Assembly (NCBI GenBank): GCA_964521295.1
Contig: CAZFRF010000001.1
Coordinates: 463,865 to 527,864, forward strand
DNA length: 64,000 nt
Direction of reading: 5' to 3'
Source: an uncultured Gammaproteobacteria bacterium
Lineage (GTDB): Bacteria > Patescibacteriota > Microgenomatia > Levybacterales > UBA12049
The notes beneath the pieces were generated by a model. It searched no databases. It was not told the DNA's origin and was given only the letters and a program-made list of their open reading frames with translations. How positions within the stretch are numbered: position 1 is the stretch's first letter; each line of letters opens with the position of its first letter. The position numbers and the translations under genes were made by a program. Shown here piece by piece: positions 10,471 to 47,720 of the stretch.

Positions 10471-10482
10471 AATCTCACCTCC

Positions 10483-10695: not shown

Positions 10696-10696
10696 T

Positions 10697-10939: not shown

Positions 10940-11026
10940 AAGCTCATCTTAATAAAGGATGTAAAAAATCAAAGAAGACTAATGTAAGAAATAAGTAAGA
11001 AAGATCATTTATGGATTATTTTTTGT

Positions 11027-11032
11027 TATAAT
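11027..11032 (+). promoter_or_regulatory. Extended -10 element (TGTTATAAT) about 10 nt upstream of the kinase ATG; near-leaderless transcript likely
   Basis: TGtTATAAT at 11024-11032, ATG at 11043, no Shine-Dalgarno. Confidence 0.35.
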
Positions 11033-11042
11033 TTAGGCTCAA

Positions 11043-30091: not shown

Positions 30092-30637
30092 GTGTATACT
30101 CCACCCAAGATGTTAAAAACACATAGGCAAAACACTTTTGAAGGCTGCCTTCCCATCTGTCTTTTAATTATTGAGGATAAAGATATAAATAAGAAAAATG
30201 AACTAGAGATTATTTACAATGCCCTCTTAAAAAGACGTGATAATTTTTATGCACTCAACATTCTTTCTTCATTTGCAGAAAAATATTCAAAAGACATAAC
30301 TCTATTTGTAGGAATTAATGAATACGCAAAATATTTAAATAAACATAAAGATAATCAACGAATTAAAATTTTTTACCAAGAAATAAACTTAGAATTTTTA
30401 CTTAAAACAAAAATACCATATATTCTACAAATTGATGATTTTGCGCTTGGAGACATTGTCCATGCCATGCATTATGTAATAATTGAAAATATAGATGAAA
30501 ACGAAGTCATAATAAACGATCCCTGGAGTGGCTCAAGAAATAAGCTTAAAACCTCTACACTACTAAACGGCATTGAATTACTTGAGAATCATTTACTTTT
30601 CTCTCCACTTTTAATTTCTATTAATAAATATGAATAA
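30092..30637 (+). CDS. Cytoplasmic C39-like (Peptidase_C39_2-type) cysteine peptidase domain protein
   Basis: Cys motif FEGCLPICLLII. His/Asp region HAMHYVIIENIDENEVIINDPWSG resembles the C39 H...DP signature. No signal peptide. Confidence 0.45.
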   Translation: MYTPPKMLKTHRQNTFEGCLPICLLIIEDKDINKKNELEIIYNALLKRRDNFYALNILSSFAEKYSKDITLFVGINEYAKYLNKHKDNQRIKIFYQEINLEFLLKTKIPYILQIDDFALGDIVHAMHYVIIENIDENEVIINDPWSGSRNKLKTSTLLNGIELLENHLLFSPLLISINKYE

Positions 30638-31058
30638 ATTATTTGGGTTAACAATTATACTAACCGAAACATTTCTCTATGCCTTGCTAAGTCCGTTGCT
30701 AAAGAAAGCTAATTTAAATTTTCAACCTTTCACAGTCATGACTTTCTCGATGTTATCTTTATTTATTTTCTCCTTAATTATGAGCGTTTGTTTTGAAAAT
30801 TTATTAAGTATTAATCTTCAAAAAGACTCGCGAACAATTTTATTTCTTTTTGTAATTGGACTCATTAATGGCGTGGCTTTTTGGTTAGGAATAAAAACCT
30901 ATAAAATCTTACCTCTGTCACAGCTCTCACTTTTTGCACTACTATCTCCAATTTTTATAACAATATTGGCATATTTTATCTTGGGAGAAAAATTTTCTTA
31001 TAAAATTTTCATTAGCCTAGCTATTATGGGAATAGGTCTGATTTATTCTTTGATCTAG
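30630..31058 (+). CDS. Small 4-TM membrane protein (EamA/DMT-half-like)
   Basis: 8-nt ATGAATAA overlap with the upstream C39-like gene. Four hydrophobic helices. Confidence 0.4.
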   Translation: MNKLFGLTIILTETFLYALLSPLLKKANLNFQPFTVMTFSMLSLFIFSLIMSVCFENLLSINLQKDSRTILFLFVIGLINGVAFWLGIKTYKILPLSQLSLFALLSPIFITILAYFILGEKFSYKIFISLAIMGIGLIYSLI

Positions 31059-31059
31059 A

Positions 31060-31188
31060 TTATTCACAACACGGATCTTTGTAGCCACACTGTGGGCAAT
31101 ATGCATCCCTACTTCCAGGCATATCTCCCATAGGGGTTTGGCAAACAGGACATGGCTGAGTTCTTAAAGAAGATTTTTTAGATTCCAT
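31060..31188 (-). CDS. Small Cys-rich zinc-ribbon protein (42 aa); not in ORF track
   Basis: MESKKSSLRTQPCPVCQTPMGDMPGSRDAYCPQCGYKDPCCE. Its ATG (31188-31186) overlaps the last codons of the HAD gene. Confidence 0.4.
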   Translation of the reverse strand: MESKKSSLRTQPCPVCQTPMGDMPGSRDAYCPQCGYKDPCCE

Positions 31189-31876
31189 TTATCTCTTTAA
31201 TAATATCAATTACACTTCTTAAATTGTCAATTTTCTTCCAAGCCGCTTTCTGCAACTCATCGTCTTTATGCCACCATGAATCGCTTAAATGGTTTGGATT
31301 TTTCGTTCTATACAAAAGCCCTCGCTTTGTATACTTAAAAGCGTCTAAATCATTGTTAGCATCCCCTATAAATAAAGAATCTTCTGGGTTTAGATCTAAC
31401 TTTTTACAGAAATCATCAATTGCAATTACTTTAGCTTTTGGATCCAAATCAGTATAAGAGGTATTAAGAAAATTTCCATCTTCAGCAAAATGAAAGACTG
31501 CATTTGCATGATAATAATCAGTTCCAAAATACTTCGCAATTTGACTAATATAAAATTCTATACCACTAGATATAAAAGCAAACTCAATATTTTGAGATTT
31601 AATAAAATTAATTAAATCAATGGCTTCTTTGTTTAATTCAAAGTTTTTAATATCCAGAATTTCCTCATATTTTTCCCTAGTTAAACCTTGACCCCTATAA
31701 TGCTCAACGACTTTTTGATTCCACTCATCATAGCTAATTTCGCCTCTTGAGTATGCGTCGTACCATTCTCTATCTAATTCTGGAGAAACGTTCATCGCCC
31801 TATGAAGCCTAAGCCAAGGATTACCAAAAATTACAACGCCATCACAATCAAAAAATACAATTTTTACTTTATTCAT
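31178..31876 (-). CDS. HAD-superfamily hydrolase (PSP/SerB-like subfamily)
   Basis: Motif I VFFDCDGVV. Later KxxxD and DxxxD-type motifs (FIGDANNDLDA). Confidence 0.7.
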   Translation of the reverse strand: MNKVKIVFFDCDGVVIFGNPWLRLHRAMNVSPELDREWYDAYSRGEISYDEWNQKVVEHYRGQGLTREKYEEILDIKNFELNKEAIDLINFIKSQNIEFAFISSGIEFYISQIAKYFGTDYYHANAVFHFAEDGNFLNTSYTDLDPKAKVIAIDDFCKKLDLNPEDSLFIGDANNDLDAFKYTKRGLLYRTKNPNHLSDSWWHKDDELQKAAWKKIDNLRSVIDIIKEINGI

Positions 31877-31892: not shown

Positions 31893-33470
31893 CTATTTAC
31901 CTTTATAGTGGACTAATTTATAAATCTCTACAACGGAAACTTTCCATTTCTGATCAATCTCTGCTCTACCAAAACCTGCAATTTCCCATAACGAATTTCC
32001 TAATGGCTCACAAGGCAAACTTTCACAAACTACAAATAATTGATCGGTTACAGTTTCTCTTTTCGGATCAGCGTTTGGATCTTTTATTGTCGTTGGCGGA
32101 TGTCCCCAAATTGTAAAGAAATATCGATATGCGTGATCACTATTGCCTCCCGTAACTAAAGCGAAATTAAAAGGCTTTGCATCGGTATGCACCATTACAA
32201 ACTCAGCGATACTTCGCATTTGATTTAATTGCTGATTAGCTGGATATGCAAAGGGATTACTCCAGAGATTTTGAATTAAAATAATAACAAAAATAATAAT
32301 TACTAAGACTTTAGAAAATATACCTATAATTTTTTTATTGTTAAAAATAAATTCTAAAAGTAAACTTACTAAAATAAATGGTGCTGGGAAAAGAAAGGTA
32401 AAATAATAATCGTAAATTGCTTTTTTATAAAATCCAAAAAGTACAATTCCTAATACTAACCAAAAAAAGAGTAAAGAATATTTATAAAAATCATTATCTT
32501 TATTTTTAAATGAATTATAAAGTCTATAAAAAAGTAGAGCTAAAGAACAAACGGCCAAAACAAGAACGAATATATACCAGATATTTAAAACTTCCTTGGA
32601 AAAATGCACTTTTTGATCTATATCTGGATATGCAAATACCAATCTTCCAAAAATTCTGAAAAATACATCGTAAACAGTACCCAATAAATTAACTGATGGA
32701 CCTGTGTCTCCTGAGTTAAATAAAAAAGTAGTAATATTTTTAAAATCAGGAAAACCATGACGTACCTCAAATGCAATAAACGGAGACCAACCAATTAAAA
32801 ATCCAACAAAAATAGTTAAATAATTTTTAAATAAACTAATTACAGCTTTTTTAAAGTTTGATTTATAAAATCCAACAAACAGTAAATATAAAAATATGAC
32901 CCCTCCCAAAAATAGCGCTAAATAATGCAGCTGCATGGCAATTCCTAGTAGAAAACCTGAAAAAGCAAAAAGCTTTAGAGAATTTTTACGAAGTGCAAAG
33001 TAAACCGTAAATAAGGTAAGTAAAGAAACAAAAGGTAAGGGATTTGGATTCCAACTTGACCTAGAATAAGTTACGACCAAAGGTGATATTGCATATAAAA
33101 AAGAAGCAAGCAACGCTACCTTTTTGTTAAAAAAATTAGCAACAATTATATACAAAAGCAAAACTGTTAAAATTCCGATTAAAGCAACTCCCACCGCAGG
33201 ACCCACAGGATTAAAGTTAAATAGCCATAAAAAGGGAGCCATATAATAGTAATAAATAGGACCCAAGAAAAATCCACCAACTGATGAGGTAGGACCTAAA
33301 AGAGTTAAGTGCCCATGTAAAATATTATAAGCAACTAACACATCTCTTCCTTCGTCACCCAAGAAACGTAAATACTTTTCTATCTTATATAGCCTAAAAA
33401 AAGCAGATATTACTAAAATGATTAAAAGAGCAATATTCTCTTTTGTAAGAAATGATTTTAACTTGTTCAT
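31893..33470 (-). CDS. GT-C membrane glycosyltransferase, PMT/ArnT (GT39/GT83)-like
   Basis: About 12 TM. First-loop DE motif (FLGDEGRDVLVAYN). 525 aa. 4-nt overlap with the upstream Dpm1-like gene. Confidence 0.6.
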   Translation of the reverse strand: MNKLKSFLTKENIALLIILVISAFFRLYKIEKYLRFLGDEGRDVLVAYNILHGHLTLLGPTSSVGGFFLGPIYYYYMAPFLWLFNFNPVGPAVGVALIGILTVLLLYIIVANFFNKKVALLASFLYAISPLVVTYSRSSWNPNPLPFVSLLTLFTVYFALRKNSLKLFAFSGFLLGIAMQLHYLALFLGGVIFLYLLFVGFYKSNFKKAVISLFKNYLTIFVGFLIGWSPFIAFEVRHGFPDFKNITTFLFNSGDTGPSVNLLGTVYDVFFRIFGRLVFAYPDIDQKVHFSKEVLNIWYIFVLVLAVCSLALLFYRLYNSFKNKDNDFYKYSLLFFWLVLGIVLFGFYKKAIYDYYFTFLFPAPFILVSLLLEFIFNNKKIIGIFSKVLVIIIFVIILIQNLWSNPFAYPANQQLNQMRSIAEFVMVHTDAKPFNFALVTGGNSDHAYRYFFTIWGHPPTTIKDPNADPKRETVTDQLFVVCESLPCEPLGNSLWEIAGFGRAEIDQKWKVSVVEIYKLVHYKGK

Positions 33471-34600
33471 TGTTGGGGTTTTTTACGCCAAATTATCAAT
33501 CTGTAGACCGAAAAATTATAAATAAGTAATATTCCTGTTCCAAAAATAAAATAGACAAAGTAATATTGTCTACCAAAAATAATATCTCCTAAATAAATAA
33601 TGCCTGACTGAATGATAATTACACCAAAAGCTGAAGTAGCATAGAAATTAAGCATCTTCCAAATATATTGAGCTATAGTTTTTACTCTTTCATTTTTAAA
33701 TGTCCATAAATTATTTAAATTGTAATTTGAAAATACTGCAACAACTGCACCTATTAAACTTGCAACAGCTGGAATAAAATGAAAATTTTCTACTAAAACT
33801 CTTAAAATTATTGCCTGAAGAAAAAAGCCTATTCCTCCAACTACTAAAAATTTACCAAAAGAACCATGAAGTAATTCATTTACTCTTACTTTAATGACAA
33901 AAGCTAATGTCTTAATTATTGTTTCTATCCCAGGTATTTTAGATTTTCCCATTGTTCTATCTTTTGCATTAAAAGGCACTTCAGCTACTTTATAACCATC
34001 TTTTACTGCATTCCACAAAAATCCTACTTGAAAAGTATATCCTGTAAATGAACCTAACTTATCCTTTTCTTTTAGAAAAACTTCTTTCTTAATTGCTCTG
34101 TAGCCCCCGGTCCAATCATCAATTCCTTTTCTTCCAAATAAAAGTCTAATAAAAACATTTCCCCACACAGACATTATTTTTCTATGAATTCCCCAATCTG
34201 CAGGTATTGAACCGCCTTTACTATAACGAGTGCCCACAACAAAATCATTTCCTTCATCGATTTTTTGCAAAAATTCTGGAATTTTCTGAGGATCATGAAA
34301 AAAATCCGCATCCATTTCAAACATTACATCAGCATTCATTTTTTCAACCGCATAGGTCATTGCTCTTATATAAGCTGCCCCTAAACCAGCTTTTTCGCCT
34401 ACTAATACCTCTAGGTTTTTATATTTACCCTGCAACTCCTTAACAACCTCTCCGGTTCCATCAGGCGAACTATCATCTGCAACCAAAATACTCATTTGAT
34501 GTGTTTTAATTTGGGGAAAAATTTCTTCTTCTAGGTTTTTAATTAGGAGCTCTATGTTTCCTTTTTCATTATAGGTAGGAATAATAATTACTGCATGCAT
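33467..34600 (-). CDS. Polyprenol-phosphate mannose/glucose synthase (Dpm1-like GT2) fused to a GtrA-like 4-TM domain
   Basis: IIIPTYNE...VADDSSPDG...GAAYIRA GT2 core. C-terminal GtrA-like helices. Confidence 0.75.
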   Translation of the reverse strand: MHAVIIIPTYNEKGNIELLIKNLEEEIFPQIKTHQMSILVADDSSPDGTGEVVKELQGKYKNLEVLVGEKAGLGAAYIRAMTYAVEKMNADVMFEMDADFFHDPQKIPEFLQKIDEGNDFVVGTRYSKGGSIPADWGIHRKIMSVWGNVFIRLLFGRKGIDDWTGGYRAIKKEVFLKEKDKLGSFTGYTFQVGFLWNAVKDGYKVAEVPFNAKDRTMGKSKIPGIETIIKTLAFVIKVRVNELLHGSFGKFLVVGGIGFFLQAIILRVLVENFHFIPAVASLIGAVVAVFSNYNLNNLWTFKNERVKTIAQYIWKMLNFYATSAFGVIIIQSGIIYLGDIIFGRQYYFVYFIFGTGILLIYNFSVYRLIIWRKKPQQ

Positions 34601-34612: not shown

Positions 34613-35569
34613 TCATAAAGATCTGAAATATTCTATTGTCTTAGTAAGTCCAGTCTCTACATCGATCTTAGGTGCCCAACCAAAAAGCCTTTGTGCTTTA
34701 GAAATATCTGGTTTTCTTTTTTTGGGATCATCTTCAGGTAAAGGTTCGAATATGATTTTAGAATCTGAATTTGTCAGTTTTAAAACCAATTTTGCTAACT
34801 CTAGAATTGTTCTCTCGTCTGGATTACCTAAGTTCAAAACTTCACCATTTGTCATATCTGAAAACATCGCCATTGTTAACCCATTGATTAAGTCACTAAT
34901 AAAACAAAAGCTTCTTGTCTGATCACCTTTACCAAAGACTACTATATCTTCATTTTTTATTGCCTTGTTAATAAAATCAGAAACAACCCTTCCGTCATCG
35001 GGCTGCATATTTGGACCATAGGTATTAAAAATTCTAATAATTTTTATATCTAATCCAAACTTACGATAGTAGGTCATAACCAGCGCTTCACCAAATCTTT
35101 TCGATTCGTCATAAGGAGACCTAATTCCATTAGGATTCACATTGCCAAAATAATCTTCAGTTTGAGGGGAAATTGCTGGATCTCCATAAACTTCCGATGT
35201 CGAAGCATATAAAAACCTTGCATTATTAACCTTGGCTAACTCAAGTAAATTATGGGTGCCTTGAGAGTTAACTAATAAAGTTTCTAAGGGAAAATTAATA
35301 TAACTTCTTTTACTTTTTTTATTTGGAGACGCAGGGGATGCCAAATGAAATATGAAATCTATTTTTCCAAATTCATTTGGATCAATATTTTCAATTATAT
35401 TTTTTTCAATTAAACTAAAATTGGGATTTGCCTTTAACGCTTCAACGTTTTTCGCATCGCCAGTAATATAATTATCTACAGCTATAACTTTGTAACCTTT
35501 TTCGAGAAGATCTTTACAGAGGTGTGATCCGATAAAACCTGCTCCGCCAGCAACCAAAGCAGTTTGCAT
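34613..35569 (-). CDS. UDP-glucuronate decarboxylase (UXS)-like NAD-dependent epimerase/dehydratase
   Basis: GGAGFIGSHL Rossmann fold. YDESKR (YxxxK). UXS-like length and motifs. Confidence 0.65.
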   Translation of the reverse strand: MQTALVAGGAGFIGSHLCKDLLEKGYKVIAVDNYITGDAKNVEALKANPNFSLIEKNIIENIDPNEFGKIDFIFHLASPASPNKKSKRSYINFPLETLLVNSQGTHNLLELAKVNNARFLYASTSEVYGDPAISPQTEDYFGNVNPNGIRSPYDESKRFGEALVMTYYRKFGLDIKIIRIFNTYGPNMQPDDGRVVSDFINKAIKNEDIVVFGKGDQTRSFCFISDLINGLTMAMFSDMTNGEVLNLGNPDERTILELAKLVLKLTNSDSKIIFEPLPEDDPKKRKPDISKAQRLFGWAPKIDVETGLTKTIEYFRSL

Positions 35570-35571: not shown

Positions 35572-36534
35572 CTATTTTTCCCTTTCTAACTCAGCTTCAA
35601 CCATCATCTTTACCAAATCCTCAAATGACACCTCTGGCTCCCAGCCTAATTTTTCTTTGGCTTTTGTATAATCTCCGATTAGATAATCTACCTCTGCTGG
35701 TCTTGTATGTTCTGGATGGTCTTGAACAACATAGTGTTCCCAATCCTCAATTCCTGCGTTTTTAAACGCTAATTCAACAAACTCTCTAACACTGTGGGTC
35801 TCACCGGTAGCGATTACATAATCGTCAGGTTCTGGTTGCTGAAGCATCATCCACATAGCTTTTACATAATCTCCAGAGTAACCCCAATCTCTCTTTGATT
35901 CTAAGTTTCCTAAAATAATTTTACTTTGCTTACCAAGCTTAATCCTAGCAACACCGTTGGCAATTTTTCTAGTAACAAATTCTATTCCTCTTCTTGGAGA
36001 CTCATGGTTAAAGAGAATTCCTGAACATGCAAAAATTCCATAGCTCTCTCTATAATTCTGAGTAATGTAATGACCATAAACTTTCGCTACTCCATAAGGA
36101 CTCCTTGGATGAAATCTCGTTGTTTCTTTTTGTGGAGTCTCAGTTACTTTTCCAAACATTTCGGAGCTTGATGCCTGATAAAACTTAATCTTTGGATTTG
36201 TAGTTCTAATTGCCTCTAAAACCCTAGTAACACCTAATCCTGTAAATTCTCCTGTTAAAACTGGTTGATCCCAGGATGCTTTTACAAATGATTGCGCAGC
36301 AAGATTGTATACCTCATCTGGCTTTGCCTTATGGATTGCATCTGTTAAAGATCCCTGATCTAATAAATCTGCAGATACTAAATGAATATTATCAACTATA
36401 TCTTTAATATTCTCCATGTTTGGAGTAGAGAGTCTCCTAACTGTTCCCCAAACATCATAACCCTTAGAAAGCAAAAACTCTGCTAGATATGGTCCATCCT
36501 GTCCTGTAATACCAGTAATTAATGCGCTTTTCAT
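35572..36534 (-). CDS. gmd: GDP-mannose 4,6-dehydratase
   Basis: [23 protein letters not shown] and the remaining sequence closely match Gmd. Confidence 0.85.
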
Positions 36535-37493
36535 TGTTTAATAAATCCTCTCCAATATTCTAGAATATCTTGGAGTGTTTTCTCAAGTGGTATTTCTGGC
36601 TCCCATCCAGTTAAACCGCTAATTTTTGTATTATCGCAAATTAAATTAGGATTGTCAGTAGGTCTTAATAAACTTGGATCAACCTCGATTTTTATTTCTG
36701 TATGAGAAAAAGCCAACAGCATGTCCAAGACTTCTGACATCTTATATGATTTACCTGAACCAATATTGTATACATCTCCTATTTGCCCCTTTTCCATGAG
36801 TAAAATATATGCTCGTACTACATCTTTTACATCCGTGAAGTCTCTTTTTGAATCTAAATTTCCCACTGTTAGCACAGGCGGCCTAATTCCTTTTTCAATT
36901 TCAGCAATTTTCTTAGCAAAAGCAGAAGTAGCAAATTGATCACCTTGACCTGGCCCTATATGATTAAAAGGCCTTACCCTGAGTACATTTAATTTATATG
37001 AATTAAAATACTGCAAGGCCATAAAGTCCTGGGCAATTTTTGAAACAGCATATGGATTAGCAGGATTTAATTTTGTTTCTTCATCTATAGGTAAATCTTC
37101 CTCTGAAACAATTCCGTAAACCTCGGCTGATGAGATAATCATAATTCTAGTCTGCAAATTTAATTTTCTTACTGCTTCAAAAATATTTAACTCACCAACA
37201 ATGTTATTTGTCATAACATCCTGAGGATTATCAAAACTAACCCTTGCTGAAGTTAATGCTGCTAAATGATAAACTTCATCGGGTTGAATTTGTTCAATAA
37301 TTTCAAATACATTTTTAGCATTCATTAAATCAACCTTTGCAAGTTTAATTTTAGAAGTAAGCTCTGTAAGAGAAGTTAGGCTTTTATCAGAAAGATATGT
37401 CCCAAAAATTTCTACATCAGGATTCTTTATTAATTCCTTAACTAAATAGCTGCCTACAAAACCTGAGGCACCGGTTATTAAGATTTTCTTCAT
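36531..37493 (-). CDS. NAD-dependent sugar epimerase/reductase, likely GDP-4-dehydro-6-deoxy-D-mannose reductase (Rmd)
   Basis: [15 protein letters not shown] (YxxxK). [12 protein letters not shown] resembles the Rmd C-terminal motif. 4-nt overlap with gmd. Confidence 0.5.
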
Positions 37494-37496: not shown

Positions 37497-38789
37497 TTAT
37501 CTACCAACACCAAGATAATTAAAACCGAGTCTTTTTACCTCAAGAGGGTTATAAATATTTCTACCATCTAAAAGATTTGGATTCTTCATTAATGACTTTA
37601 TTTTTTCTAAATTTAGCTGCTTAAATTCATTCCATTCTGTAACCACGATTAATATATCCGCTTCCCTAGCAGCTTCATACGAATCATCTACAAATTCTAT
37701 TCCATCAATTAACCTTATAGCATTTGAAACTGCAATAGGATCATAGGCTCTAATTTTTGCACCAGTTTTCTTAAGCTCATTAATAATTACGATTGAAGGA
37801 GCGTCTCGCATATCGTCGGTATTTGGCTTAAAGGAAAGTCCTAATACTCCAATCGTAGAATTCTTAATCTTTTCGCCTAATATTTTCTTAGCTTTCTTAA
37901 CAATATCTAACATTGCTTCTTCATTGATTTCCTCAACTGCTTTAAGCAATTTAAAATCATATCCATAATCCCCGGCAATAGAAATTAAGGCCTTAACATC
38001 CTTAGGAAAACAACTACCACCATATCCTGCTCCTGGAGATAAGAATTGATTACCAATTCTCTTGTCGTAACCTATACCCTCTAAGACCTTAATGCCATCT
38101 GCCCCACTTAATTCAGAAAGCCTTGCAATTGCCCCTGCAAATGAAATCTTAGTAGCTAAAAATGCATTTGCTGCGTATTTAATCATTTCAGCTGTCTCAA
38201 TGTTAGTTAATACATAATTACCATCAATTGGCTCATGAAGCTCAACCAAAATATCTTTAGCCTTATCTGAAACTGTACCAATAACAATTCTATCTGGATG
38301 CAACGTATCAGAAATTGCTTGTCCTTCTCTTAAAAATTCAGGTACAGATCCTAATTCAAATTCTGCTTTTTCTGGCTTATTTTGCTCAATAATCTCCCTA
38401 ACTTTTTTGTTAGTACCAACAGGAACCGTGCTCTTAGTAACTACAACTGTATACCCATCTAAATGCTTTGCGATTTTTTCGGCAACATCAAAAACTACTG
38501 TCAAATCTGCTTCCCCTGTTGGTCTTGGAGGAGTACCAACGGCAATAAAAACAACTTTAGACGCTGGAATTGCCTGGTCGTAATCTAGAGTAAATAATAA
38601 TCTTCCTGCCTTAACATTTCTTTGAACAATTTCTGCAAGACCAGGTTCATAAATAGGAATAATACCTTTTTTGAGATTTTCAATTTTTTCTGGAGTATGA
38701 CCAATTACCCAAACAGTATTCCCTAAATCGGCGAACACTGCTGCTGTAACAAGTCCCACATATCCGTGTCCTAAAAAAGTAATTGTCAT
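37497..38789 (-). CDS. ugd: UDP-glucose 6-dehydrogenase
   Basis: TFLGHGYVGLV. Catalytic GGSCFPKD. C-terminal SFKPNTDDMRDAP UDP-sugar-binding motif. 430 aa. Confidence 0.85.
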   Translation of the reverse strand: MTITFLGHGYVGLVTAAVFADLGNTVWVIGHTPEKIENLKKGIIPIYEPGLAEIVQRNVKAGRLLFTLDYDQAIPASKVVFIAVGTPPRPTGEADLTVVFDVAEKIAKHLDGYTVVVTKSTVPVGTNKKVREIIEQNKPEKAEFELGSVPEFLREGQAISDTLHPDRIVIGTVSDKAKDILVELHEPIDGNYVLTNIETAEMIKYAANAFLATKISFAGAIARLSELSGADGIKVLEGIGYDKRIGNQFLSPGAGYGGSCFPKDVKALISIAGDYGYDFKLLKAVEEINEEAMLDIVKKAKKILGEKIKNSTIGVLGLSFKPNTDDMRDAPSIVIINELKKTGAKIRAYDPIAVSNAIRLIDGIEFVDDSYEAAREADILIVVTEWNEFKQLNLEKIKSLMKNPNLLDGRNIYNPLEVKRLGFNYLGVGR

Positions 38790-39652
38790 GAGTTTTTTAG
38801 TAAATGCAATCCTTCTTCAAAGGAATGCATGTTAACGCTTAACTTTCTTATTTTAGCATTGTTAAGTGCTGAATAAAAGGGCTCCATTGGCCTCGAAACT
38901 AGAAACTCAGCTCTCGTAGTCTTACCAATTAAACTACTATCTAGACCAAAAACTTTAGCAATTAAATTAACCGCATCATGAATACTTAATATTTGACCGC
39001 CAACAGAATTATATAAACCAGTTGCTCCATGTTTTAATAATGTATTAATAGCAACTGCTACGTCGTCAACATATGTTGGAGAAATAACTCTATCTGTTAA
39101 TACTGATATCGGCTTTTGATCTGTCAAAGTTTTTCTAAAAAATCTTACAAAATCTGGTTTTGAGAAGTCGTTTCTATAAGGATACGCAGGCCTTAAAATT
39201 ATCCATGGTGAACTTAAACCTTTCACTATCTTTTCACCCTCAACTTTCGTTTCGGCATAAAAATTAAATGGATTATAACTTGCTTCTTCCGTAAAACCAC
39301 CTTCCGGCATTTCATCTCCACCTACTACTAAATCTGTAGAAAAATGAATCATTTTTTTATTTGTTGCCTCACAAGCTTTAGCTACATTTTGTGTGCCAAT
39401 AACATTGATCTTCCAGACTTCACTATCTTTTCCTAAGTTTTTTTGCACTTCTGCAGTTCTTACGTCTGTATACGCTGCTAAATGAAGTACAAATTCTGCT
39501 GAGGAAGCTTTTATCACTTGATAAACCTGATCAAAATTTGTGATATCTACTCCGGTTGACCTACTTACATTCTCGAATTCAAACTGTTCTGAAAGTAATT
39601 CAACAATTCGAGAACCAAAAAGTCCATTGAGGCCTGTGCCTAAAATCTTCAT
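38786..39652 (-). CDS. dTDP-4-dehydrorhamnose reductase (RmlD)-like
   Basis: RmlD-type substrate-binding-domain architecture. 288 aa. Operonic with rmlB. Confidence 0.55.
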   Translation of the reverse strand: MKILGTGLNGLFGSRIVELLSEQFEFENVSRSTGVDITNFDQVYQVIKASSAEFVLHLAAYTDVRTAEVQKNLGKDSEVWKINVIGTQNVAKACEATNKKMIHFSTDLVVGGDEMPEGGFTEEASYNPFNFYAETKVEGEKIVKGLSSPWIILRPAYPYRNDFSKPDFVRFFRKTLTDQKPISVLTDRVISPTYVDDVAVAINTLLKHGATGLYNSVGGQILSIHDAVNLIAKVFGLDSSLIGKTTRAEFLVSRPMEPFYSALNNAKIRKLSVNMHSFEEGLHLLKNS

Positions 39653-40674
39653 AAATCTTCAACGTGACCTGCTAAATTATTGTGTAAAATTTCTTGATAA
39701 TCCTTTGCAATAATTTCCTCCCACCAATCCCTATGATCCTTATACCATTGAATTGTTTTTTCTAGCCAAACATCAAAATCATGAAGTGGCTCCCAACCTA
39801 ATTCTTGATTAATTTTTGTCCAATTTACATCATACTTTCTATCATTTCCTTGTCTGTCATTCACAAATTTAATATAACTTTCATCCTTACCCATTATCTT
39901 TAAAATTCTATTTACAACTTCATGGTTAGAAATTCCTTTATTCATACCTCCGATTAAATATGTTTCACCAATTTTTCCTTTTTCCAAAATAAGCTCTATT
40001 GCTCTGACATGATCCTCAACATATAACCAATCTCGAATATTTCTTCCGTCTCCATGTAGTGGAATTTTCTTGTCCTGTAAAAGATTAGTAATTGCAATTG
40101 GTATTAATTTTTCAGGATACATTGCTGGACCATAATTGTTAGAACAATTACTAATTGTTATGGGTAAACCATAAGTATGATAGTAAGCTCTTACCAAATG
40201 GTCAGCACCAGCTTTAGTTGCAGAATAAGGACTAGATGGAAAATAAGGTGTTGTTTCCGTAAATTGAGCAGGATTATCTAATTCAATACTTCCGAAAACC
40301 TCATCAGTTGAAATATGATGAAATCTTTTTACATTATTTTTCTTAGCAGCTTCTAAAAGTGAATATGTTCCCACAAAATTAGAGTGAATAAATGGATAAG
40401 GATCCATAATAGATCTATCTACATGTGTTTCTGCGGCAAAATGAACAACGATATCAACACCCCTCATTACCTCATCCATCTTTTCTTTATCGCAAATATC
40501 GTAATTTTTAAATGAATAATGAGGATTATCTTTTACCTGATCTAAATTAACTAAATTTGCAGCATAAGTTAATTTATCAACGTTTATAACGTCATCATCT
40601 GAATGATTTTTCATCCAGTATAAAATGAAGTGTGAACCAATAAAACCTGCTCCACCTGTAACAAGTAACTTCAT
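39649..40674 (-). CDS. rfbB: dTDP-glucose 4,6-dehydratase
   Basis: LLVTGGAGFIGSHF...YAANL, YSATK (YxxxK). Classic RmlB. Confidence 0.85.
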   Translation of the reverse strand: MKLLVTGGAGFIGSHFILYWMKNHSDDDVINVDKLTYAANLVNLDQVKDNPHYSFKNYDICDKEKMDEVMRGVDIVVHFAAETHVDRSIMDPYPFIHSNFVGTYSLLEAAKKNNVKRFHHISTDEVFGSIELDNPAQFTETTPYFPSSPYSATKAGADHLVRAYYHTYGLPITISNCSNNYGPAMYPEKLIPIAITNLLQDKKIPLHGDGRNIRDWLYVEDHVRAIELILEKGKIGETYLIGGMNKGISNHEVVNRILKIMGKDESYIKFVNDRQGNDRKYDVNWTKINQELGWEPLHDFDVWLEKTIQWYKDHRDWWEEIIAKDYQEILHNNLAGHVEDL

Positions 40675-40704: not shown

Positions 40705-41370
40705 TTGTCAACACAACCTTGGTATGCTATATTAAACGGTATGGACAATCCATATAAATTAGCTCTAAATCCAACAGATCCAGAATGGCCACAATTTATA
40801 CAGACTACTGAAATACCAGGTCTTTTAGTTTCACAACGTGAAGTTTTTGCTGACGATAGGGGCTTCTTCCACGAAGCAGTAGAGCTTAGAGATTTTGAGA
40901 AAGTTTTAGGCAAAAAAATATCTATAACCCAATGGAATCATTCAAAATCTCACCCAAATGTAATTAGAGGAATTCATAGTGAACCTTGGGAGAAAATTAC
41001 TTATGTAGCAAAAGGAAATGCAATTGCTGTAATTGTTGATTTAAGACTTGATTCCCCAACTTTTGGCAAAGCAGTTAAAATTGAAATTGGAGAAAATAAT
41101 AGAAAAACTCTCTATCTACCCCAAGGCATGGGAAATTCTTTTTGCGCAATTGGAGATGAAGATGTTGAATATATGTATATGATTACAGGCTATTTTGAAG
41201 GCAAACCAACACCTGCAATCTCATTTAAAGATCCAATTATTACTAAACAGTTTGGCGGCTGGCCAGTAGAAAATCCAATTGTTTCTGAAAAAGACTTAAG
41301 CTATCCAACTCTTAAAGAAAAATATGAAGGGCAAATAGATTTCTCCAATTTTCCTTGGCTACAAGACTAA
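40705..41370 (+). CDS. rfbC: dTDP-4-dehydrorhamnose 3,5-epimerase (RmlC, cupin)
   Basis: FADDRGFFHE, VIRGIHSEPW, AVIVDLRLDSPTFGK match RmlC. True start may be ATG at 40741. Confidence 0.75.
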   Translation: MSTQPWYAILNGMDNPYKLALNPTDPEWPQFIQTTEIPGLLVSQREVFADDRGFFHEAVELRDFEKVLGKKISITQWNHSKSHPNVIRGIHSEPWEKITYVAKGNAIAVIVDLRLDSPTFGKAVKIEIGENNRKTLYLPQGMGNSFCAIGDEDVEYMYMITGYFEGKPTPAISFKDPIITKQFGGWPVENPIVSEKDLSYPTLKEKYEGQIDFSNFPWLQD

Positions 41371-42299
41371 TTAGCTGGTTTTAAAGAGGCTAATGTTTTT
41401 TTCTCTAAAATATTTATTCCATTTTGAATTAACCAATATATTATAAAAGGATATTTGGTTCTATAATTTTTTTTATAGAAAATTCGCATCGCATTAAATC
41501 TAGCCTTTTGTAGTCTTTTTTTTGATTCAATATTTTCTTTTGTAATGTTAGCAGTTTTCTTTTTTATTCCACTTGAAGCTCCTCCAATATGCATTATATT
41601 TTTCTCACCAATATAATAGATTTTTCTACCTAGTTTTTGAATGTTATAGCAAAATTGCAAATCTTCTCCGTAGAAAAAATAATCCTCATCCCACCAGCCA
41701 ACTTTTTCTCCAACCTCCCTTGGCACCATCATAAAAGCTCCTTCGACTGCATCTACCTCATGAGTGGTGTTCATGTTTTTCCATCCTTGCGTGTAACCTG
41801 AAAAAAATCTGTTTTTGGGAAAAAGTCTTGAAATGCCACTGAAATAGCAAAACGCATTCCAAGGGGTAGGAAAACCCCTATGACAATTAAAATCTATTTC
41901 CCCGTCTTGGTTAATTAACTTACAAGACACCGCTCCGACCTCTTTATGATTATCCAAAAAATTAATCAAATACTCTAATACATTTTTATAGACAATTGTA
42001 TCCGGGTTTAAAAATAGTACATATCTACCATTAGATAAAGCAACGCCTTTATTATTTCCTGCTGAAAACCCAATATTTCCACCGTTATCAACTATATGAA
42101 AATTTTTTATCTTACTTGTCTCTTTATATTTTCTAAAATATTCTAATGACCCATCAGTTGATGCATTATCTGCTACGATCACTTCGTACTTTCCCGCTTT
42201 AACTTCTTCTAGGTAATTTTCTTCAATCGATTTCACCGCCTGAGCAGTAATCTCTTTAGTGTTGTATGTTAAGATAATTATTGATAAATCTACCTTCAT
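41367..42299 (-). CDS. GT2-family glycosyltransferase
   Basis: IIILTYNT...VADNASTDGS...DTIV GT-A fold motifs. Confidence 0.7.
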   Translation of the reverse strand: MKVDLSIIILTYNTKEITAQAVKSIEENYLEEVKAGKYEVIVADNASTDGSLEYFRKYKETSKIKNFHIVDNGGNIGFSAGNNKGVALSNGRYVLFLNPDTIVYKNVLEYLINFLDNHKEVGAVSCKLINQDGEIDFNCHRGFPTPWNAFCYFSGISRLFPKNRFFSGYTQGWKNMNTTHEVDAVEGAFMMVPREVGEKVGWWDEDYFFYGEDLQFCYNIQKLGRKIYYIGEKNIMHIGGASSGIKKKTANITKENIESKKRLQKARFNAMRIFYKKNYRTKYPFIIYWLIQNGINILEKKTLASLKPAN

Positions 42300-42300: not shown

Positions 42301-43185
42301 TTAATTTATTGCTTTAATTGCTTGAGAATAAGTATCTTTTAAGTATGAATTTTTAGTTAGAATACCAATGATCTGCAAAGCATAAGCCTTTGTTAACAAG
42401 GCGATTTTTATAAGAATATATTCAAATTTAGTCCTATGTTTTTTATAAAAATATAAAAGATTTTTATAAATATTCACAATCGCAAAAGTTCTATTGGTAC
42501 TACCATATTCTGCATGTAATACTGAAATATAAGGATAAAAATAGGTTTTATATCCATTTAATAAAGCTCTATAGCAAAGCTCCATATCTTCCGTGTACAT
42601 AAAAATCTTCTCATCAAATCCACCTAATTTATCAAAGACATCTTTTACAATCATAAGCAGACCTCCTTTTACCCAATCAACCCTTTCGATTTCTTTGGGA
42701 CTTTTATCTAATAATCCAAATTTCTGAAACCCCAAAAGGAGCATAATCGCTCGCGTTAATGTATAAAACTTTCCCGTAGAGGGCTGTAGACTACCATCCT
42801 CGTTTTTTAACTGACCACCCAAAATAGCAACGTTTGGGCTTTCGTCTAAGTATCTAGCCATTTTTATGAATGCATTATCACAAACTACAGTATCATTATT
42901 TAAAAACAATAAATATTTTCCTTTAGCTTTTTTTGCTCCTAGATTACAACCCTTACTAAAACCACTATTTTCATCATTTTCAATCAAAATATTGTTCTTA
43001 AATTTTTTTTCTTCTATTATTTCTTTTATATTTTTAACTGAATCATCACCTGAAGCATTATCAACCACAATAACTTCCATCTGTCCTTCTTCAAATTCAT
43101 TTTTATAGAATTTATTTAATGATTCTAAGCAAGCAATAGTTAAGTGGCTTTTTTTATAATTTAAAGTGACTATGGAGATTAACAC
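42301..43185 (-). CDS. GT2-family glycosyltransferase
   Basis: SIVTLNYK...VVDNASGDDS...NNDTVV. 1-nt gap from the downstream GT2 gene. Confidence 0.7.
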   Translation of the reverse strand: MLISIVTLNYKKSHLTIACLESLNKFYKNEFEEGQMEVIVVDNASGDDSVKNIKEIIEEKKFKNNILIENDENSGFSKGCNLGAKKAKGKYLLFLNNDTVVCDNAFIKMARYLDESPNVAILGGQLKNEDGSLQPSTGKFYTLTRAIMLLLGFQKFGLLDKSPKEIERVDWVKGGLLMIVKDVFDKLGGFDEKIFMYTEDMELCYRALLNGYKTYFYPYISVLHAEYGSTNRTFAIVNIYKNLLYFYKKHRTKFEYILIKIALLTKAYALQIIGILTKNSYLKDTYSQAIKAIN

Positions 43186-43458
43186 CTAAACACCTATCCT
43201 TCCCATAAACACGAAGAATACAATTGATATACCAAGTAATCCAATTAATAAATACTCAACGACAATTTTATTTGTTAAATTATGTTCTTTTTTGTGATGC
43301 CATATTCCCCAAACTACATAGAAAATTATAGTCAAAATAATTATTATAATTTGTAAAAAAATATTTGGATAAACTACCACGGACAATAATAATCCAACAG
43401 CAAATATTGCTAAAAGCGATAAATAATAATTAAGATGTTTAATAATTTTTTTAATCAT
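43186..43458 (-). CDS. Small 2-3 TM membrane protein
   Basis: 90 aa, hydrophobic. Confidence 0.4.
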   Translation of the reverse strand: MIKKIIKHLNYYLSLLAIFAVGLLLSVVVYPNIFLQIIIIILTIIFYVVWGIWHHKKEHNLTNKIVVEYLLIGLLGISIVFFVFMGRIGV

Positions 43459-44364
43459 TTAAAGAACATATCCTTTCAATACAACTAATAATAAAATTCC
43501 TATTAATGCAAAAAGTAAAACATGGTCAAGATTATGTCCAACAAATCGAATAATCTTCTTTCTTTCAATAATAATCATATCCAATATTAAAACAAACATA
43601 AATATTACGACTGTAGTCATAGCCAAATTAGATGAAAAAGTTTGAGCGTTGATAAGCGGAGCAGCCGGAGTCGGCTGAACTGGCTCTACCTTCTTAATCT
43701 CTTCAGTCTCTGGCTTAGTCTCTTTTTGATCAGCAGGAGATGAAGCAACTTGAGGAGTTGACGATTCTACTTGCTGAGAAGGCACAGACGCAGATTCTGA
43801 TTCTCCTCTAGCACCAAACATCTCCACTACTAAAATGGTATTCTCGCCGGTCAAATTACCATCTAGGACTGCAAAGCCAACCTCTTTATAATTTGGAGAT
43901 AAAACGTTTTCCCTATGACTCGGACTTGCCATCCATGCATCCACAACTCCCGATGCCGAATCATATCCCCTTGCTAAATTCTCTCCTGCATAAAGATAGT
44001 TATATCCCGCTGATCTAATAAAATACCAAGGAGTTGTTCCGTCTGGAGCAATATGAGACCAAAAATTTTTTTCAAACATATAATTTCCTTTTGCTAAAGC
44101 TGCGCTACTCAAAGACCCATTCAGTGACAAAGGTGGCAAATTATTATTTTGTCTTTGCTGGTTAGTTAAAATAAGTAGCTGATCAATTGATATTTGTGAA
44201 GTTATTCCCAATACTGATGGGTAACTTTGCCTAGTAAATGAAGTAAGTATGCCCAGAGAAAAGAAAAATAGAATTAACAAGACTAATATTTGAGGATGTA
44301 ATAATTTTGGTCGATAATTGTTAGTTAAGTGAGGAGTAAAAAAATGGCGCAGAAATTTCTTCAT
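43459..44364 (-). CDS. CAP/SCP (PR-1-like) domain protein, membrane-anchored at both ends
   Basis: GENLARGYDSASGVVDAWMASPSHRENVLSPNYKEVGFAV matches the bacterial CAP-domain signature. Ser/Pro-rich linker and C-terminal TM. Confidence 0.65.
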   Translation of the reverse strand: MKKFLRHFFTPHLTNNYRPKLLHPQILVLLILFFFSLGILTSFTRQSYPSVLGITSQISIDQLLILTNQQRQNNNLPPLSLNGSLSSAALAKGNYMFEKNFWSHIAPDGTTPWYFIRSAGYNYLYAGENLARGYDSASGVVDAWMASPSHRENVLSPNYKEVGFAVLDGNLTGENTILVVEMFGARGESESASVPSQQVESSTPQVASSPADQKETKPETEEIKKVEPVQPTPAAPLINAQTFSSNLAMTTVVIFMFVLILDMIIIERKKIIRFVGHNLDHVLLFALIGILLLVVLKGYVL

Positions 44365-45269: not shown

Positions 45270-45678
45270 TCGTTATTTCTCTTTCGTTATAATTTATTAA
45301 TTTAAACTTAATATCAATTCTTTTTTTAGGCAACATTTCTTGTAATTTTTCTGCCCATTCTATAGCAATAATATTTGAATTATCTTCTAAAATTTCATCT
45401 AAACCAATACTTAAAAAATCATGTTTAGTCTCCGTTCTGTATAAATCTATATGATAAAAAACAAAATCCTTTAGTTCGTAATGCCTAGCAATTATAAATG
45501 TTGGAGAGATGATTCTGTTTTTAATTCCTAATCCCTTAGCTAAACCTTGGACAAAAGTTGTCTTACCACTACCTAACTCTCCATATAAACATAAAACATC
45601 TCTTGGCTTTAATGTTCTAGCAAATTCTTCTGCAAATCCTTGTGTTTCCTGTAAACTTGTCAATCTTAATTTACTCAT
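45253..45678 (-). CDS. tsaE: t6A ATPase TsaE (YjeE)
   Basis: P-loop LYGELGSGKTTFVQGLAKGLG. 141 aa. Confidence 0.8.
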   Translation of the reverse strand: MSKLRLTSLQETQGFAEEFARTLKPRDVLCLYGELGSGKTTFVQGLAKGLGIKNRIISPTFIIARHYELKDFVFYHIDLYRTETKHDFLSIGLDEILEDNSNIIAIEWAEKLQEMLPKKRIDIKFKLINYNEREITIDKYE

Positions 45679-46477
45679 GTTTTAAAAATTTTAACTTTAT
45701 TGTCGGCCAAAAGAATAATATACCACATAGACTTAAGAAAATAACCCCGATAAATACAAAAATAAATCCAATCCAATTTGCAGGATTAAATGAATTAATA
45801 GATTTTGTCTCTTGATTAGGAATAGACGCCTTAGAATTCACAGGGTTATTCGAAGAGCCTAAGACCTCATGTGTAATAGTTTCTTCAGGCTTAGATGTAG
45901 GAGTTAAAGTATTTGTAATTTTTTTAGTAGGAGACAATACGGAAATAGAAGATGGAACAGTTGTAATGGTGGGAGTTAAAGTAGATGTTGGAATAGGAGT
46001 GGTTGTATTTGTTGGCATAGGCGTTAATGTTGGAGATGAATAATTAATAACAATATCAACTGGGGTTTGAATATCTGATGAACTAGGATTACCTGAAGCA
46101 GTATATCTTCTAATCCTTAGCTTATACGGCCCAGAACCTAGATAATCACTTGCTCCTGGGGCACCTAATCTCGCCTGAATTATTGCACTAGCAGAAGAAT
46201 TAATAATGCTCACTGGGAAATATTGCTTTCCCTCGGAGCCTGAATACCAATTCAAACTATTAAATGTTTCACCAAAATAATTAGACGTACCATCTTTAAA
46301 AAGATCAGCTCTAAAATAGTTTTGACCATCTGATGCTCCAGTAACGCTAAATGTAATACTAAAACTGTCTGTAGAAATTGAGGTAGGATAATTAACGATA
46401 CTAATGCTTACCGCATGAGCTGCAGATTTAAAAAAGATAAATACTACAAAAGCAATTATAAAAATTATTGCTTTCAC
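45671..46477 (-). CDS. Thr/Pro-rich cell-surface protein, putative sortase substrate
   Basis: Signal peptide, beta-rich domain, TPxPT linker. C-terminal FNP + hydrophobic helix + KLKFLKHE tail. Confidence 0.45.
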   Translation of the reverse strand: MKAIIFIIAFVVFIFFKSAAHAVSISIVNYPTSISTDSFSITFSVTGASDGQNYFRADLFKDGTSNYFGETFNSLNWYSGSEGKQYFPVSIINSSASAIIQARLGAPGASDYLGSGPYKLRIRRYTASGNPSSSDIQTPVDIVINYSSPTLTPMPTNTTTPIPTSTLTPTITTVPSSISVLSPTKKITNTLTPTSKPEETITHEVLGSSNNPVNSKASIPNQETKSINSFNPANWIGFIFVFIGVIFLSLCGILFFWPTIKLKFLKHE

Positions 46478-46483: not shown

Positions 46484-47710
46484 TTAAAACCCGTTAATTT
46501 TATATACCACGTATACGCTATTCGTTGAATATTTATCGGTAAAAGGAATCTTATGCCCACTTGCTGTAAACGGATCATTCATCAAATAATTTCCGTTATT
46601 ATAATCTGTGAGCACAACAAAATGAGTGTCTCCATTTGCATACTTTATTCCCACAACAACTGGTCGACCACTCTGCAATTCACCATCTGCTGCCGAAATA
46701 TAAGTGCCGATTTGCGACCTAGTTGTAGTTATCCCATCTGCTCTAATTGTAAAATTTAAATATGCTGGATAATATGATGCAAAATTCCATGAATCCGAGT
46801 TAATACTTTGTGGAGTAACACCTCTATGCCCATAATGGGTATATACCATTGCCATAGATGTTACCAAGCATCCATCAGATGCCAAAGAGTACTGAGTTCC
46901 ATTCAAAGCGCTCCCACCCCATTGCGAATCTCTTTGATTATAATAACAACCCCAATCATCACAAGTGGTTTGTCCAGATAAAAGCGTTGCTCCACCTTGA
47001 CTCTGAGCAAACCCTGAGAAACCAGCAAGCTGCGCTTTTGCTTGAGCAAGTAAGCTTTGATAATTTGCCTCACTACCCTTTGTTTGAGTAAGTAAATCTT
47101 GTTTTGCCTGTTTCTCAATATCTAACTGATCTGTGTATGCAACTAATTGAGTTTTTAATCCCTCAACTTGTTTTTTCTTGTCTTGATAAATATTTTTTTG
47201 ATTTGAATAATCTACTTTTGCTTGCTGCGTCTCGTAAACTAACTGCTTATCATGTGCTTGAGCTCTTTTTAAATAATTTAGTCTTGATAAAAAATTAGAA
47301 GCATTAGTAGATGTAAGCAAAACATGAAGCGGTTGAATAGTACCTACCTCATAAGTTGCGACTATTCTATTTAAAAGAACCTGTATTGAATCATTTAAAG
47401 TCACCTGTAGTTTGTCTATTTTCTTTGATGCAGTATCTATATCTAAGGTTAAATCTGAAATCTGCTGCTCAACGGACTGAATTTGATATTCAGTTAATTT
47501 TATTTGATTATCCATCACGCTGATTTGAGATGATAAGGTTCTTTCTTGACCTTGCAAATCATTTATTTTATTTTGCAAATCATTTATTTTATTTTGCAAA
47601 TCAGTAACCTGCTGCGAGTTATTAGTAGACTGACCCCAGACAACGGAGCTAGATATTAATAAACAAACTAAAAGAAAAAATATAATTTGAGCTCTTCTCA
47701 ACAATTTCAT
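46484..47710 (-). CDS. Secreted coiled-coil protein with C-terminal C39-like/CHAP-like cysteine peptidase domain (PcsB/EnvC-like architecture)
   Basis: Signal peptide from ATG at 47710. Heptad-rich coiled coil with NKINDLQ repeats. C-terminal NQRDSQWGG...DGCLVTSMAMVYTHYGH and GDTHFVVLTDYNNGNYLMNDP match the C39_2/papain-like Cys/His motifs. Lies directly downstream of ftsEX. Confidence 0.6.
   Translation of the reverse strand: MKLLRRAQIIFFLLVCLLISSSVVWGQSTNNSQQVTDLQNKINDLQNKINDLQGQERTLSSQISVMDNQIKLTEYQIQSVEQQISDLTLDIDTASKKIDKLQVTLNDSIQVLLNRIVATYEVGTIQPLHVLLTSTNASNFLSRLNYLKRAQAHDKQLVYETQQAKVDYSNQKNIYQDKKKQVEGLKTQLVAYTDQLDIEKQAKQDLLTQTKGSEANYQSLLAQAKAQLAGFSGFAQSQGGATLLSGQTTCDDWGCYYNQRDSQWGGSALNGTQYSLASDGCLVTSMAMVYTHYGHRGVTPQSINSDSWNFASYYPAYLNFTIRADGITTTRSQIGTYISAADGELQSGRPVVVGIKYANGDTHFVVLTDYNNGNYLMNDPFTASGHKIPFTDKYSTNSVYVVYKINGF
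47552..47603. repeat. 21-nt tandem repeat, about 2.5 copies (TTGCAAATCATTTATTTTATT)
   Basis: Seen directly in the sequence. Encodes the NKINDLQ repeats of the coiled-coil protein. Confidence 0.85.
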
Positions 47711-47720
47711 ATGGCATATT

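Follow-up and report, generated by a model that had tools for sequence, protein, structure and literature searches.

In Gram-positive bacteria, glycosyltransferases (GTs) of the GT-C fold that carry the Pfam domain PMT_2 work within multi-component systems, including GacI/GacL (group A rhamnan), CsdC/CsdD and CsdE/CsdF of Lactococcus, GtlA/GtlB and GttA/GttB of Listeria and GtsC of B. anthracis (PMC8035078). The characterised PMT_2 enzymes of this group, GtlB, GttB, GtcC, CsdD, CsdF, GtsC and GacL, all act on lipoteichoic acid, wall teichoic acid, rhamnan, pellicle or secondary cell wall polysaccharide (PMC8035078). Pairs of a GT2 synthase and a GT-C can also target proteins, as documented for streptococcal GtrB/PgtC2 and PgfS/PgfM1, which modify Ser/Thr-rich intrinsically disordered regions (IDRs) in a monoderm (PMC12041528). 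We describe here a two-gene module of this general kind, a GT2-GtrA protein and a PMT_2-type GT-C, encoded in a 64,000 nt stretch of DNA with a GC content of ~32% (the window) from the genome of a member of the Levybacteria (Levyibacteriota), a lineage of the Microgenomates within the Candidate Phyla Radiation (CPR). The CPR/Patescibacteria live as episymbionts, relying on contact with their hosts at the cell surface. Their envelope glycans and protein glycosylation were called 'unexplored' in a 2024 preprint (PMC11623550).

The upstream gene of the pair (33467-34600, minus strand) encodes a 377 aa protein with the Pfam domains Glycos_transf_2 and GtrA_DPMS_TM and is, by homology, a polyprenyl-phosphate sugar synthase. 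A GT2 catalytic domain (residues 5-175), with a DAD motif at residues 97-99, is followed in cis by a GtrA/DPMS-type domain with four transmembrane (TM) helices (residues 250-371; E 2.8e-14 for GtrA_DPMS_TM). The dolichyl-phosphate mannose synthase (DPMS) of Pyrococcus furiosus, structure 5MLZ, is an end-to-end match (E 6.8e-33; residues 3-370 aligned with 25-371), at roughly 30% identity. The DDxxPDxT and DAD motifs are aligned and kept, and the succession of GT2 domain, interface and four-TM GtrA-like domain is common to both proteins, so that the window protein is collinear with 5MLZ as a DPMS-type enzyme with a C-terminal GtrA-like TM domain. A preliminary description of this DNA, made from the sequence alone, had termed the protein a Dpm1-GtrA fusion; the two parts are indeed joined, but, given the full-length match to 5MLZ, they make up the known architecture of a single enzyme, DPMS, which is also the reason for the Pfam name of the domain, 'GtrA/DPMS'. 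All of the NCBIfam equivalog models inspected, for AglJ, Dol-P-hexose transferase, PpgS, ArnC and PgfS, scored far below cutoff. The protein is predicted to be an enzyme that makes a polyprenyl-phosphate monosaccharide and, in contrast to the archaeal DPMS, would be expected to use an undecaprenyl-type carrier, as UppP and an undecaprenol/diacylglycerol kinase are encoded in the window.

The downstream gene (31893-33470, minus strand) encodes a 525 aa GT-C fold glycosyltransferase of the PMT_2 type. Hydropathy, the positive-inside rule and a model are best read as 11 TM helices, rather than the 12 first described, with the N-terminus inside and a C-terminal domain of ~120 aa outside. This domain is conserved and has two invariant Cys. 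The sequence FLGDEGRD, with D39 and E40, follows directly after TM1 and is extracytoplasmic and invariant in the family, as are YSRSSWNPNP and QLHY in outside loops. The protein is polytopic, with a GT-C fold and a catalytic-type acidic residue in its first extracytoplasmic loop, and the DE motif that had been noticed there is confirmed. In a profile alignment that is collinear but statistically weak (hhalign, E 0.03, not significant), the DE pair aligns positionally with the P-D-E-T-R of E. coli ArnT. This motif is catalytic in both ArnT (D55/E56) and Pmt1 (D77/E78) and, being shared with ArnT and other GT-Cs, is not specific to PMTs (PMC7801869).

Against profile hidden Markov models, the window GT-C scores 60.5 bits on PMT_2 (PF13231; cutoff 26.1 bits), and all 40 family members that were classified with Pfam match this model. 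PF02366, which represents GT39 and GT83 together, gives no match to the window GT-C even at E<=10, and only three weak matches among the 40; five members have weak STT3 matches and none matches the YfhO model. E. coli ArnT, included as a control, reaches 211 bits with PF02366 and 37 bits with PMT_2. Given this difference, the enzyme is not a canonical member of either family and can be assigned to neither GT39 (PMT) nor GT83 (ArnT); classification has upheld the GT-C assignment but placed the protein in none of GT39, GT83 and YfhO. The PMT-like character proposed for it earlier is not borne out, as there is no PF02366 match and as protein-, lipid- and glycan-modifying GT-Cs rank equally in a fold comparison, which cannot discriminate between them. 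Searches of the PDB by sequence, with the single sequence and with a 40-sequence profile, returned no matches. Public labels such as 'glycosyltransferase family 39 protein' and 'ArnT-like' are names derived from PMT_2 and do not indicate an acceptor.

The GT-C has more than 3,600 homologs; an exhaustive search returned 7,101 cluster representatives at E<=1e-3, and relatives with 60-70% identity over 525 aa are encoded in at least 509 species genomes. Named relatives are metagenome-assembled genomes of Levybacteria, the closest related locus having 90% protein identity to the window. We examined 80 related Levybacteria loci from species-representative genomes, with 10 kb flanks, and nine distant orthologous loci outside the Levybacteria (29-48% identity), 89 loci in all. 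The GT2-GtrA stop codon and the GT-C start codon in the window share the sequence ATGA (CAA CAA TGA / ATG AAC AAG), the 4 nt overlap reported initially, and GT2-GtrA lies immediately upstream of the GT-C in 80/80 Levybacteria loci, often with overlapping codons. Of ten scanned relatives that exceed 620 aa, nine have an N-terminal extension, which in seven of the nine is a GT2 domain. These fusions of ~710-740 aa, for example those encoded at 10001-12154 of locus L082 and 10001-12202 of L087 (P0185, P0164 and others), come from Beckwithbacteria and other Microgenomates and begin with a small GT2 of the DPM1-like type, 25-29% identical to the window GT2; orthologs of GT2-GtrA adjoin them. They provide Rosetta-stone support for a partnership of GT2 with GT-C.

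By homology, the DPMS-type GT2 would load polyprenyl phosphate with a single sugar, taken from a nucleotide sugar, at the cytoplasmic face of the membrane. This sugar is most likely a hexose such as mannose or glucose, with xylose or glucuronate possible since genes for a UDP-xylose synthase (UXS) and a UDP-glucose dehydrogenase (Ugd) adjoin. The lipid-linked sugar would then be flipped outward, possibly aided by the enzyme's own GtrA-like four-TM domain, and the 11-TM GT-C, whose fold, topology and motifs are those given above, would use Asp39/Glu40 to transfer it to an acceptor outside the cell. As far as the transfer step, we regard this scheme as highly probable, and the initial proposal of a synthase and a GT-C transferase working as a pair at the outer face of the membrane agrees with homology, topology and gene linkage. 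Judged from sequence, the pair would be the minimal form of a three-component or multi-component transmembrane glycosylation system. Such systems are already known and the window adds a further member in a CPR host. It resembles those of Gram-positive bacteria in having a GT2 synthase, a GtrA-type element and an outer-face PMT_2 GT-C, with adjacent GT-A and GT-C genes and, as for GacL, rhamnose-pathway genes nearby. It differs in that the GT2 is an archaeal-like DPMS with a built-in GtrA-like four-TM domain rather than of the CsbB/GtrB type, in the GT-C's own conserved, Cys-containing C-terminal domain and in its host, a CPR bacterium with a genome of <1 Mb.

The pair forms the end of a tight, co-directional run of genes, RmlB-RmlD-Ugd-Rmd-Gmd-UXS-GT2GtrA-GTC, all on the minus strand. 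UXS (UDP-glucuronate decarboxylase, 34613-35569) ends 12 nt upstream of GT2-GtrA and matches human UXS1 (4GLL/2B69) with E 5e-92, the next-best short-chain dehydrogenase/reductase (SDR) having E 1e-41. It is preceded by Gmd (GDP-mannose 4,6-dehydratase, 35572-36534; TIGR01472, 431 bits, cutoff 415), by Rmd (36531-37493; E 1e-80 to 2PK3), the GDP-6-deoxy-D-lyxo-4-hexulose reductase that makes GDP-D-rhamnose, and by Ugd (UDP-glucose 6-dehydrogenase, 37497-38789; three UDPG_MGDP_dh Pfam domains; TIGR03026, 459 bits). An RmlD-like dTDP-4-dehydrorhamnose reductase (38786-39652; PF04321, E 5e-48; TIGR01214, 154 bits, below cutoff) and RmlB (dTDP-glucose 4,6-dehydratase, 39649-40674; TIGR01181, 461 bits, cutoff 365) complete the run. 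No terminator was found between its genes, in a promoter and terminator scan whose counts are at shuffle expectation and uninformative. The order CAP-RmlB-RmlD-Ugd-Rmd-Gmd-UXS-GT2GtrA-GTC-DUF4446-DUF3048-wHTH-SecDF is kept across the Levybacteria. In 30/65 loci UXS and GT2-GtrA share 4 nt, at the stop codon of the former and the start codon of the latter; UXS is missing from this position in 13 loci, which weakens the case for UXS as an obligatory partner and makes xylose a possible, not a required, donor sugar.

Outside the Levybacteria, all nine orthologous loci sit inside multi-glycosyltransferase glycan clusters. In each, the GT-C is the top match of the window GT-C within the locus and is full length, with the C-terminal domain; the GT2-GtrA orthologs are 34-44% identical to that of the window. 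Additional genes across these clusters encode PMT_2, MptA_B and PTPS_related GT-Cs, Wzx, Wzy_C, and GT4 and GT2 enzymes. The Beckwithbacteria locus L082, for example, has RmlB, RmlD, Ugd, two SDRs, GT2-GtrA, the GT2~GT-C fusion and two more PMT/PMT_2 genes, followed by a small GT2, an MptA_B-family GT-C, a PTPS_related GT-C, a Wzx flippase, a GT2 and another PMT_2. Loci L086 and L090 have the window's own order of CAP, small open reading frame (ORF), Rml genes, Ugd, SDR, GT2-GtrA and GT-C and then continue with a GT2, MptA_B, PMT_2, PTPS_related or unannotated ~500 aa membrane proteins and a GT2, with Wzx in L086; the nucleotide-sugar context of the pair is kept in all three of these loci. Repeated modules of a small GT2 followed by a PMT_2 are present in L084 and L087, and GT4s with Wzy_C ligase/polymerase-like proteins in L089 and L092. 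In L089, whose ortholog is 48% identical, a carbamoyltransferase gene overlaps the GT-C start, and a YcaO/nitroreductase/ScmC-type gene set (thiazole/oxazole-modified peptide; 3393-6956) adjoins the glycan genes.

Assembly of glycans outside the cytoplasm by arrays of GT-Cs is best known from mycobacteria. The sister Microgenomates clusters, in which a locus can have up to six GT-C genes, MptA_B among them, beside GT2s that resemble polyprenyl-phosphate-sugar synthases, are comparable with the machinery for lipomannan, lipoarabinomannan and arabinogalactan in the Corynebacteriales (MptA/MptB, PimE, Emb, Aft), and this arrangement implies stepwise extracytoplasmic glycan building. The Levybacteria window, in contrast, has a single core module, and genes of the phosphatidylinositol-mannoside or decaprenylphosphoryl-arabinose pathways were not seen. 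The window pair appears, from these comparisons, to be the retained core of a larger envelope-glycan cluster, and the GT-C-rich clusters suggest that bacteria with genomes of <1 Mb assemble glycans extensively outside the cytoplasm.

With this context, and with the precedents from Gram-positive bacteria, the acceptor would most likely be an envelope glycan, a wall polysaccharide, lipoglycan or lipid-linked precursor, for which the genes directly upstream would provide the nucleotide sugars (of rhamnose, D-rhamnose, glucuronate and xylose), with naked protein Ser/Thr less likely. The nucleotide-sugar operon, the multi-GT clusters of distant relatives and the acceptors of Gram-positive PMT_2 enzymes favour a glycan over a protein; we give an envelope glycan about an even chance, a protein a distinctly lower one, and an acceptor of some other kind a lower one again. 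A minimal transmembrane glycosylation system with an envelope-glycan acceptor is the best explanation of the locus as a whole, a reading on which our confidence is evenly balanced. Several observations weigh against it. The window is without an initiating phosphoglycosyl transferase, a glycan exporter or an LCP ligase, and homologs of MptA_B, PTPS_related, Wzx and Wzy_C are absent within 10 kb in the 80 Levybacteria loci, 76 of which have a single PMT_2 gene. A universal acceptor, for example protein or peptidoglycan, would likewise be compatible with a pair that is kept and highly conserved in the Levybacteria without accessory glycan genes, and a gene order shared within a single lineage may be due to descent and not to function. 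Finally, a different small DPM1-like GT2 accompanies the GT-C ortholog in L082, L087 and L084, either as its fusion partner or as the preceding gene, so that GT2-GtrA may not be the sole or obligatory supplier of the donor.

This last point leads to an explanation in which the two genes adjoin without forming an exclusive pair, GT2-GtrA being a general synthase, perhaps also a flippase, that serves several GT-Cs, and the GT-C receiving its donor from a separate small DPM1-like GT2 encoded elsewhere in the Levybacteria genome. Where the GT-C is fused to such a small GT2, a GT2-GtrA ortholog is present as well, and the small GT2 is the immediate upstream gene in L084 and L091. There is also a precedent in L. 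lactis, in which one GtrA flippase serves three GT-A/GT-C pairs (PMC8035078). The invariable adjacency in the Levybacteria and the same gene order in L086 and L090 argue for a dedicated pair, and within 10 kb in the Levybacteria there is no separate small DPM1-like GT2, the matches to small GT2s being the GT2-GtrA genes themselves. We consider the shared-synthase explanation improbable.

Thr/Pro-rich (TP-rich) linkers are the classical acceptors of protein O-mannosylation by actinobacterial Ppm1/Pmt (GT39), and the GT-Cs known to O-glycosylate proteins in actinobacteria are PF02366 enzymes. The window system shares with Ppm1/Pmt a lipid-linked sugar donor and a GT-C with a DE motif in the first loop, and it was on this likeness that the preliminary description proposed coupling of the pair to TP-rich, sortase-anchored surface proteins. 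The sugar would then be passed directly to Ser/Thr in TP-rich disordered linkers of proteins that are secreted, membrane-anchored or processed by sortase, as by Ppm1/Pmt or GtrB/PgtC2. The fold and the motif are shared with PMTs, a few relatives have weak PF02366 matches (3/40; also P0143, P0154 and P0164) and the PMT_2-bearing TMTCs of eukaryotes are protein O-mannosyltransferases (PMC7801869). The acceptors of YfhO enzymes are teichoic acids or Ser/Thr-rich proteins, and GT2 plus GT-C systems glycosylate Ser/Thr-rich IDRs in Firmicutes (PMC12041528). With such YfhO and TMTC precedents, membership of a GT-C family by itself leaves room for a protein acceptor. What still argues best for one is that Levybacteria retain the pair while lacking accessory glycan genes. 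Also in its favour are the two TPTPT-linker proteins and the sortase encoded in the window, the TP linker kept in L066 and the genes that precede the cluster in L090, all described below.

Gene context, the other basis of that proposal, lends it no support. TP-rich proteins do exist in the window, two of them with TPTPT-type linkers, but they are not next to the pair. The gene for TP268, which has the long linker (45671-46477, minus strand), is 11 kb away and that for TP155 (1528-1995, minus strand), which overlaps a sortase gene (936-1559, minus strand), is 30 kb away, with many unrelated genes between. Co-occurrence, evaluated as co-localisation, is rare, with TP-rich ORFs within 10 kb of the GT-C in 2/80 loci; the TP linker is kept in one ortholog (L066). 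None of the 80 Levybacteria loci encodes a sortase within 10 kb of the pair. Of the nine distant loci, one has a sortase nearby, L090, in which a sortase, a P/T-rich 154 aa protein and an 854 aa surface protein immediately precede the cluster. An enrichment of TP-rich ORFs or of sortase (1/89 loci) around the pair was thus rejected, and TP155 and TP268 both lack an LPXTG motif. The membrane-anchored CAP protein encoded at the head of the sugar operon, also listed initially as Ser/Pro-rich, does have a CAP domain, but its linker is only mildly Ser/Pro-rich, at 16 residues out of 40, where the 95th percentile of the background is 15. Across its orthologs (n=52), the richest stretch of 40 residues contains a median of 13.5 S+T+P (background median 12); they are not consistently S/T/P-rich, and the protein was rejected as a conserved Ser/Thr-rich acceptor.

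Taken with the absence of a PF02366 match in the window GT-C, against 211 bits for a genuine GT83, with a genomic context of glycan biosynthesis and with a donor synthase that has a GtrA domain, which Ppm1 has not, these results separate the window pair from the actinobacterial systems. The GT-Cs known to act on proteins in monoderms are PF02366 enzymes in actinobacteria or YfhO enzymes in streptococci, not PMT_2; GtrB/PgtC2 and PgfS/PgfM1 employ YfhO GT-Cs, a type matched by none of the 40 members of the window family. Direct O-glycosylation of proteins is, in our estimate, a doubtful alternative to an envelope-glycan acceptor, but the strongest of those considered.

The C-termini of the TP-rich proteins have a possible non-canonical sortase signal, in which a motif similar to [AET]V[LQ]G[LIS][ST] is followed after 10-45 residues by a TM helix and a Lys-rich tail. 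TP155 has AVLGLSST and TP268 has EVLGSSNN, and in L090 (1-2985) the 854 aa surface protein has EVLGITMT and the 154 aa P/T-rich protein TVQGLSPA; none of these candidate substrates has LPXTG. The genes for TP155 and for the 154 aa protein each overlap a sortase gene.

An ArnT-like, GT83-type function, in which the charge of a lipid A-like or glycolipid anchor is altered, would agree with the 'ArnT-like' name given to homologs by JGI, with the collinear profile alignment to ArnT and with the presence of Ugd and a UDP-glucuronate decarboxylase beside the pair, as in the Arn pathway. The hhalign probability of that alignment is, however, negligible, PF02366 is not matched, and the decarboxylase is of the UXS1 type and not ArnA (E 5e-92 versus 1e-20). 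The run has no ArnB aminotransferase, formyltransferase or deformylase, and the organism is a CPR bacterium with envelope genes of Gram-positive type (sortase, FtsEX-PcsB-like) and no lipopolysaccharide genes in the window. Such a function is very improbable.

A broader hypothesis, which we put forward as speculative and rather unlikely to hold in full, is that Microgenomates build a major envelope or glycoprotein glycan largely outside the membrane, from polyprenyl-phosphate monosaccharides and with arrays of GT-Cs, the window pair being the universally retained priming or core step. Since many genomes have UXS in translational coupling with the GT2, a polyprenyl-phosphate-xylose donor, made from the UXS product, is conceivable; in a variant, the pair would add the first sugar to Thr/Pro-rich surface proteins. 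A search of the literature yielded neither a paper on the glycosylation machinery of CPR bacteria nor a description of an undecaprenyl-phosphate-xylose donor. With its expanded relatives across the Microgenomates, the module is among the most conserved envelope functions in the Levybacteria, and it offers a tractable, easily cloned entry point to the questions of which sugar these cells display and on what molecule.

Upstream of the run, RmlC (dTDP-4-dehydrorhamnose 3,5-epimerase, 40705-41370, plus strand; PF00908, E 4e-39) is at this position only in the closest relatives. Two cytoplasmic GT2s (41367-42299 and 42301-43185, minus strand) form an insertion that is present in the window and in 6/80 loci, and are ~30% identical to GT2s that adjoin Wzx in the distant clusters. 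A small membrane protein of 90 aa (43186-43458, minus strand) always follows the CAP gene at the cluster head. The CAP/SCP-domain protein (43459-44364, minus strand; PF00188) is encoded at the head of the sugar operon in the Levybacteria and in four distant lineages; with a three-TM protein of 84-91 aa, which has a conserved W-x-I-x-H-H motif and a weak DUF5656 match, it constitutes a conserved two-gene unit at the cluster head in the Levybacteria and in L086, L087, L090 and L091.

A HAD-family hydrolase gene (31178-31876, minus strand), 16 nt downstream of the GT-C, is a variable accessory found in 7/80 loci. Just beyond, on the opposite strand, are genes for a half-size EamA/DMT protein of 142 aa (30630-31058, plus strand), the size of lipid-sugar flippase subunits of the ArnE/ArnF type, and for a C39-like peptidase-domain protein (30092-30637, plus strand). 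Both occur near the pair only in the window and in its closest relative (L001).

A 577 aa polytopic protein (54889-56622, minus strand) was considered as a second GT-C and rejected, as it has no Pfam, NCBIfam or PDB match and no similarity to the proteins of the glycan clusters. It belongs to a Levybacteria-restricted family of 'hypothetical' proteins with 204 homologs (41-86% identity), some of which have a precomputed PF19830 match. The three genes at 46484-47779, 47721-48587 and 48584-49363 (minus strand) encode between them FtsE, FtsX and a protein with a PcsB-type coiled coil and a C39-like peptidase domain, a set that corresponds to the FtsEX-controlled cell-wall hydrolase module of Gram-positive bacteria. 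A second glycan-related group is located near the start of the window (4546-7449, 2184-3497, 3511-4422 and 7452-8327, minus strand). It encodes a 967 aa membrane GT2 (synthase-like) fused to a LysM domain and a long right-handed beta-helix/NosD region, a 437 aa secreted beta-helix protein, a truncated-looking 303 aa protein of the UDP-glucose/GDP-mannose dehydrogenase family without the C-terminal domain, and an fn3-domain membrane protein.

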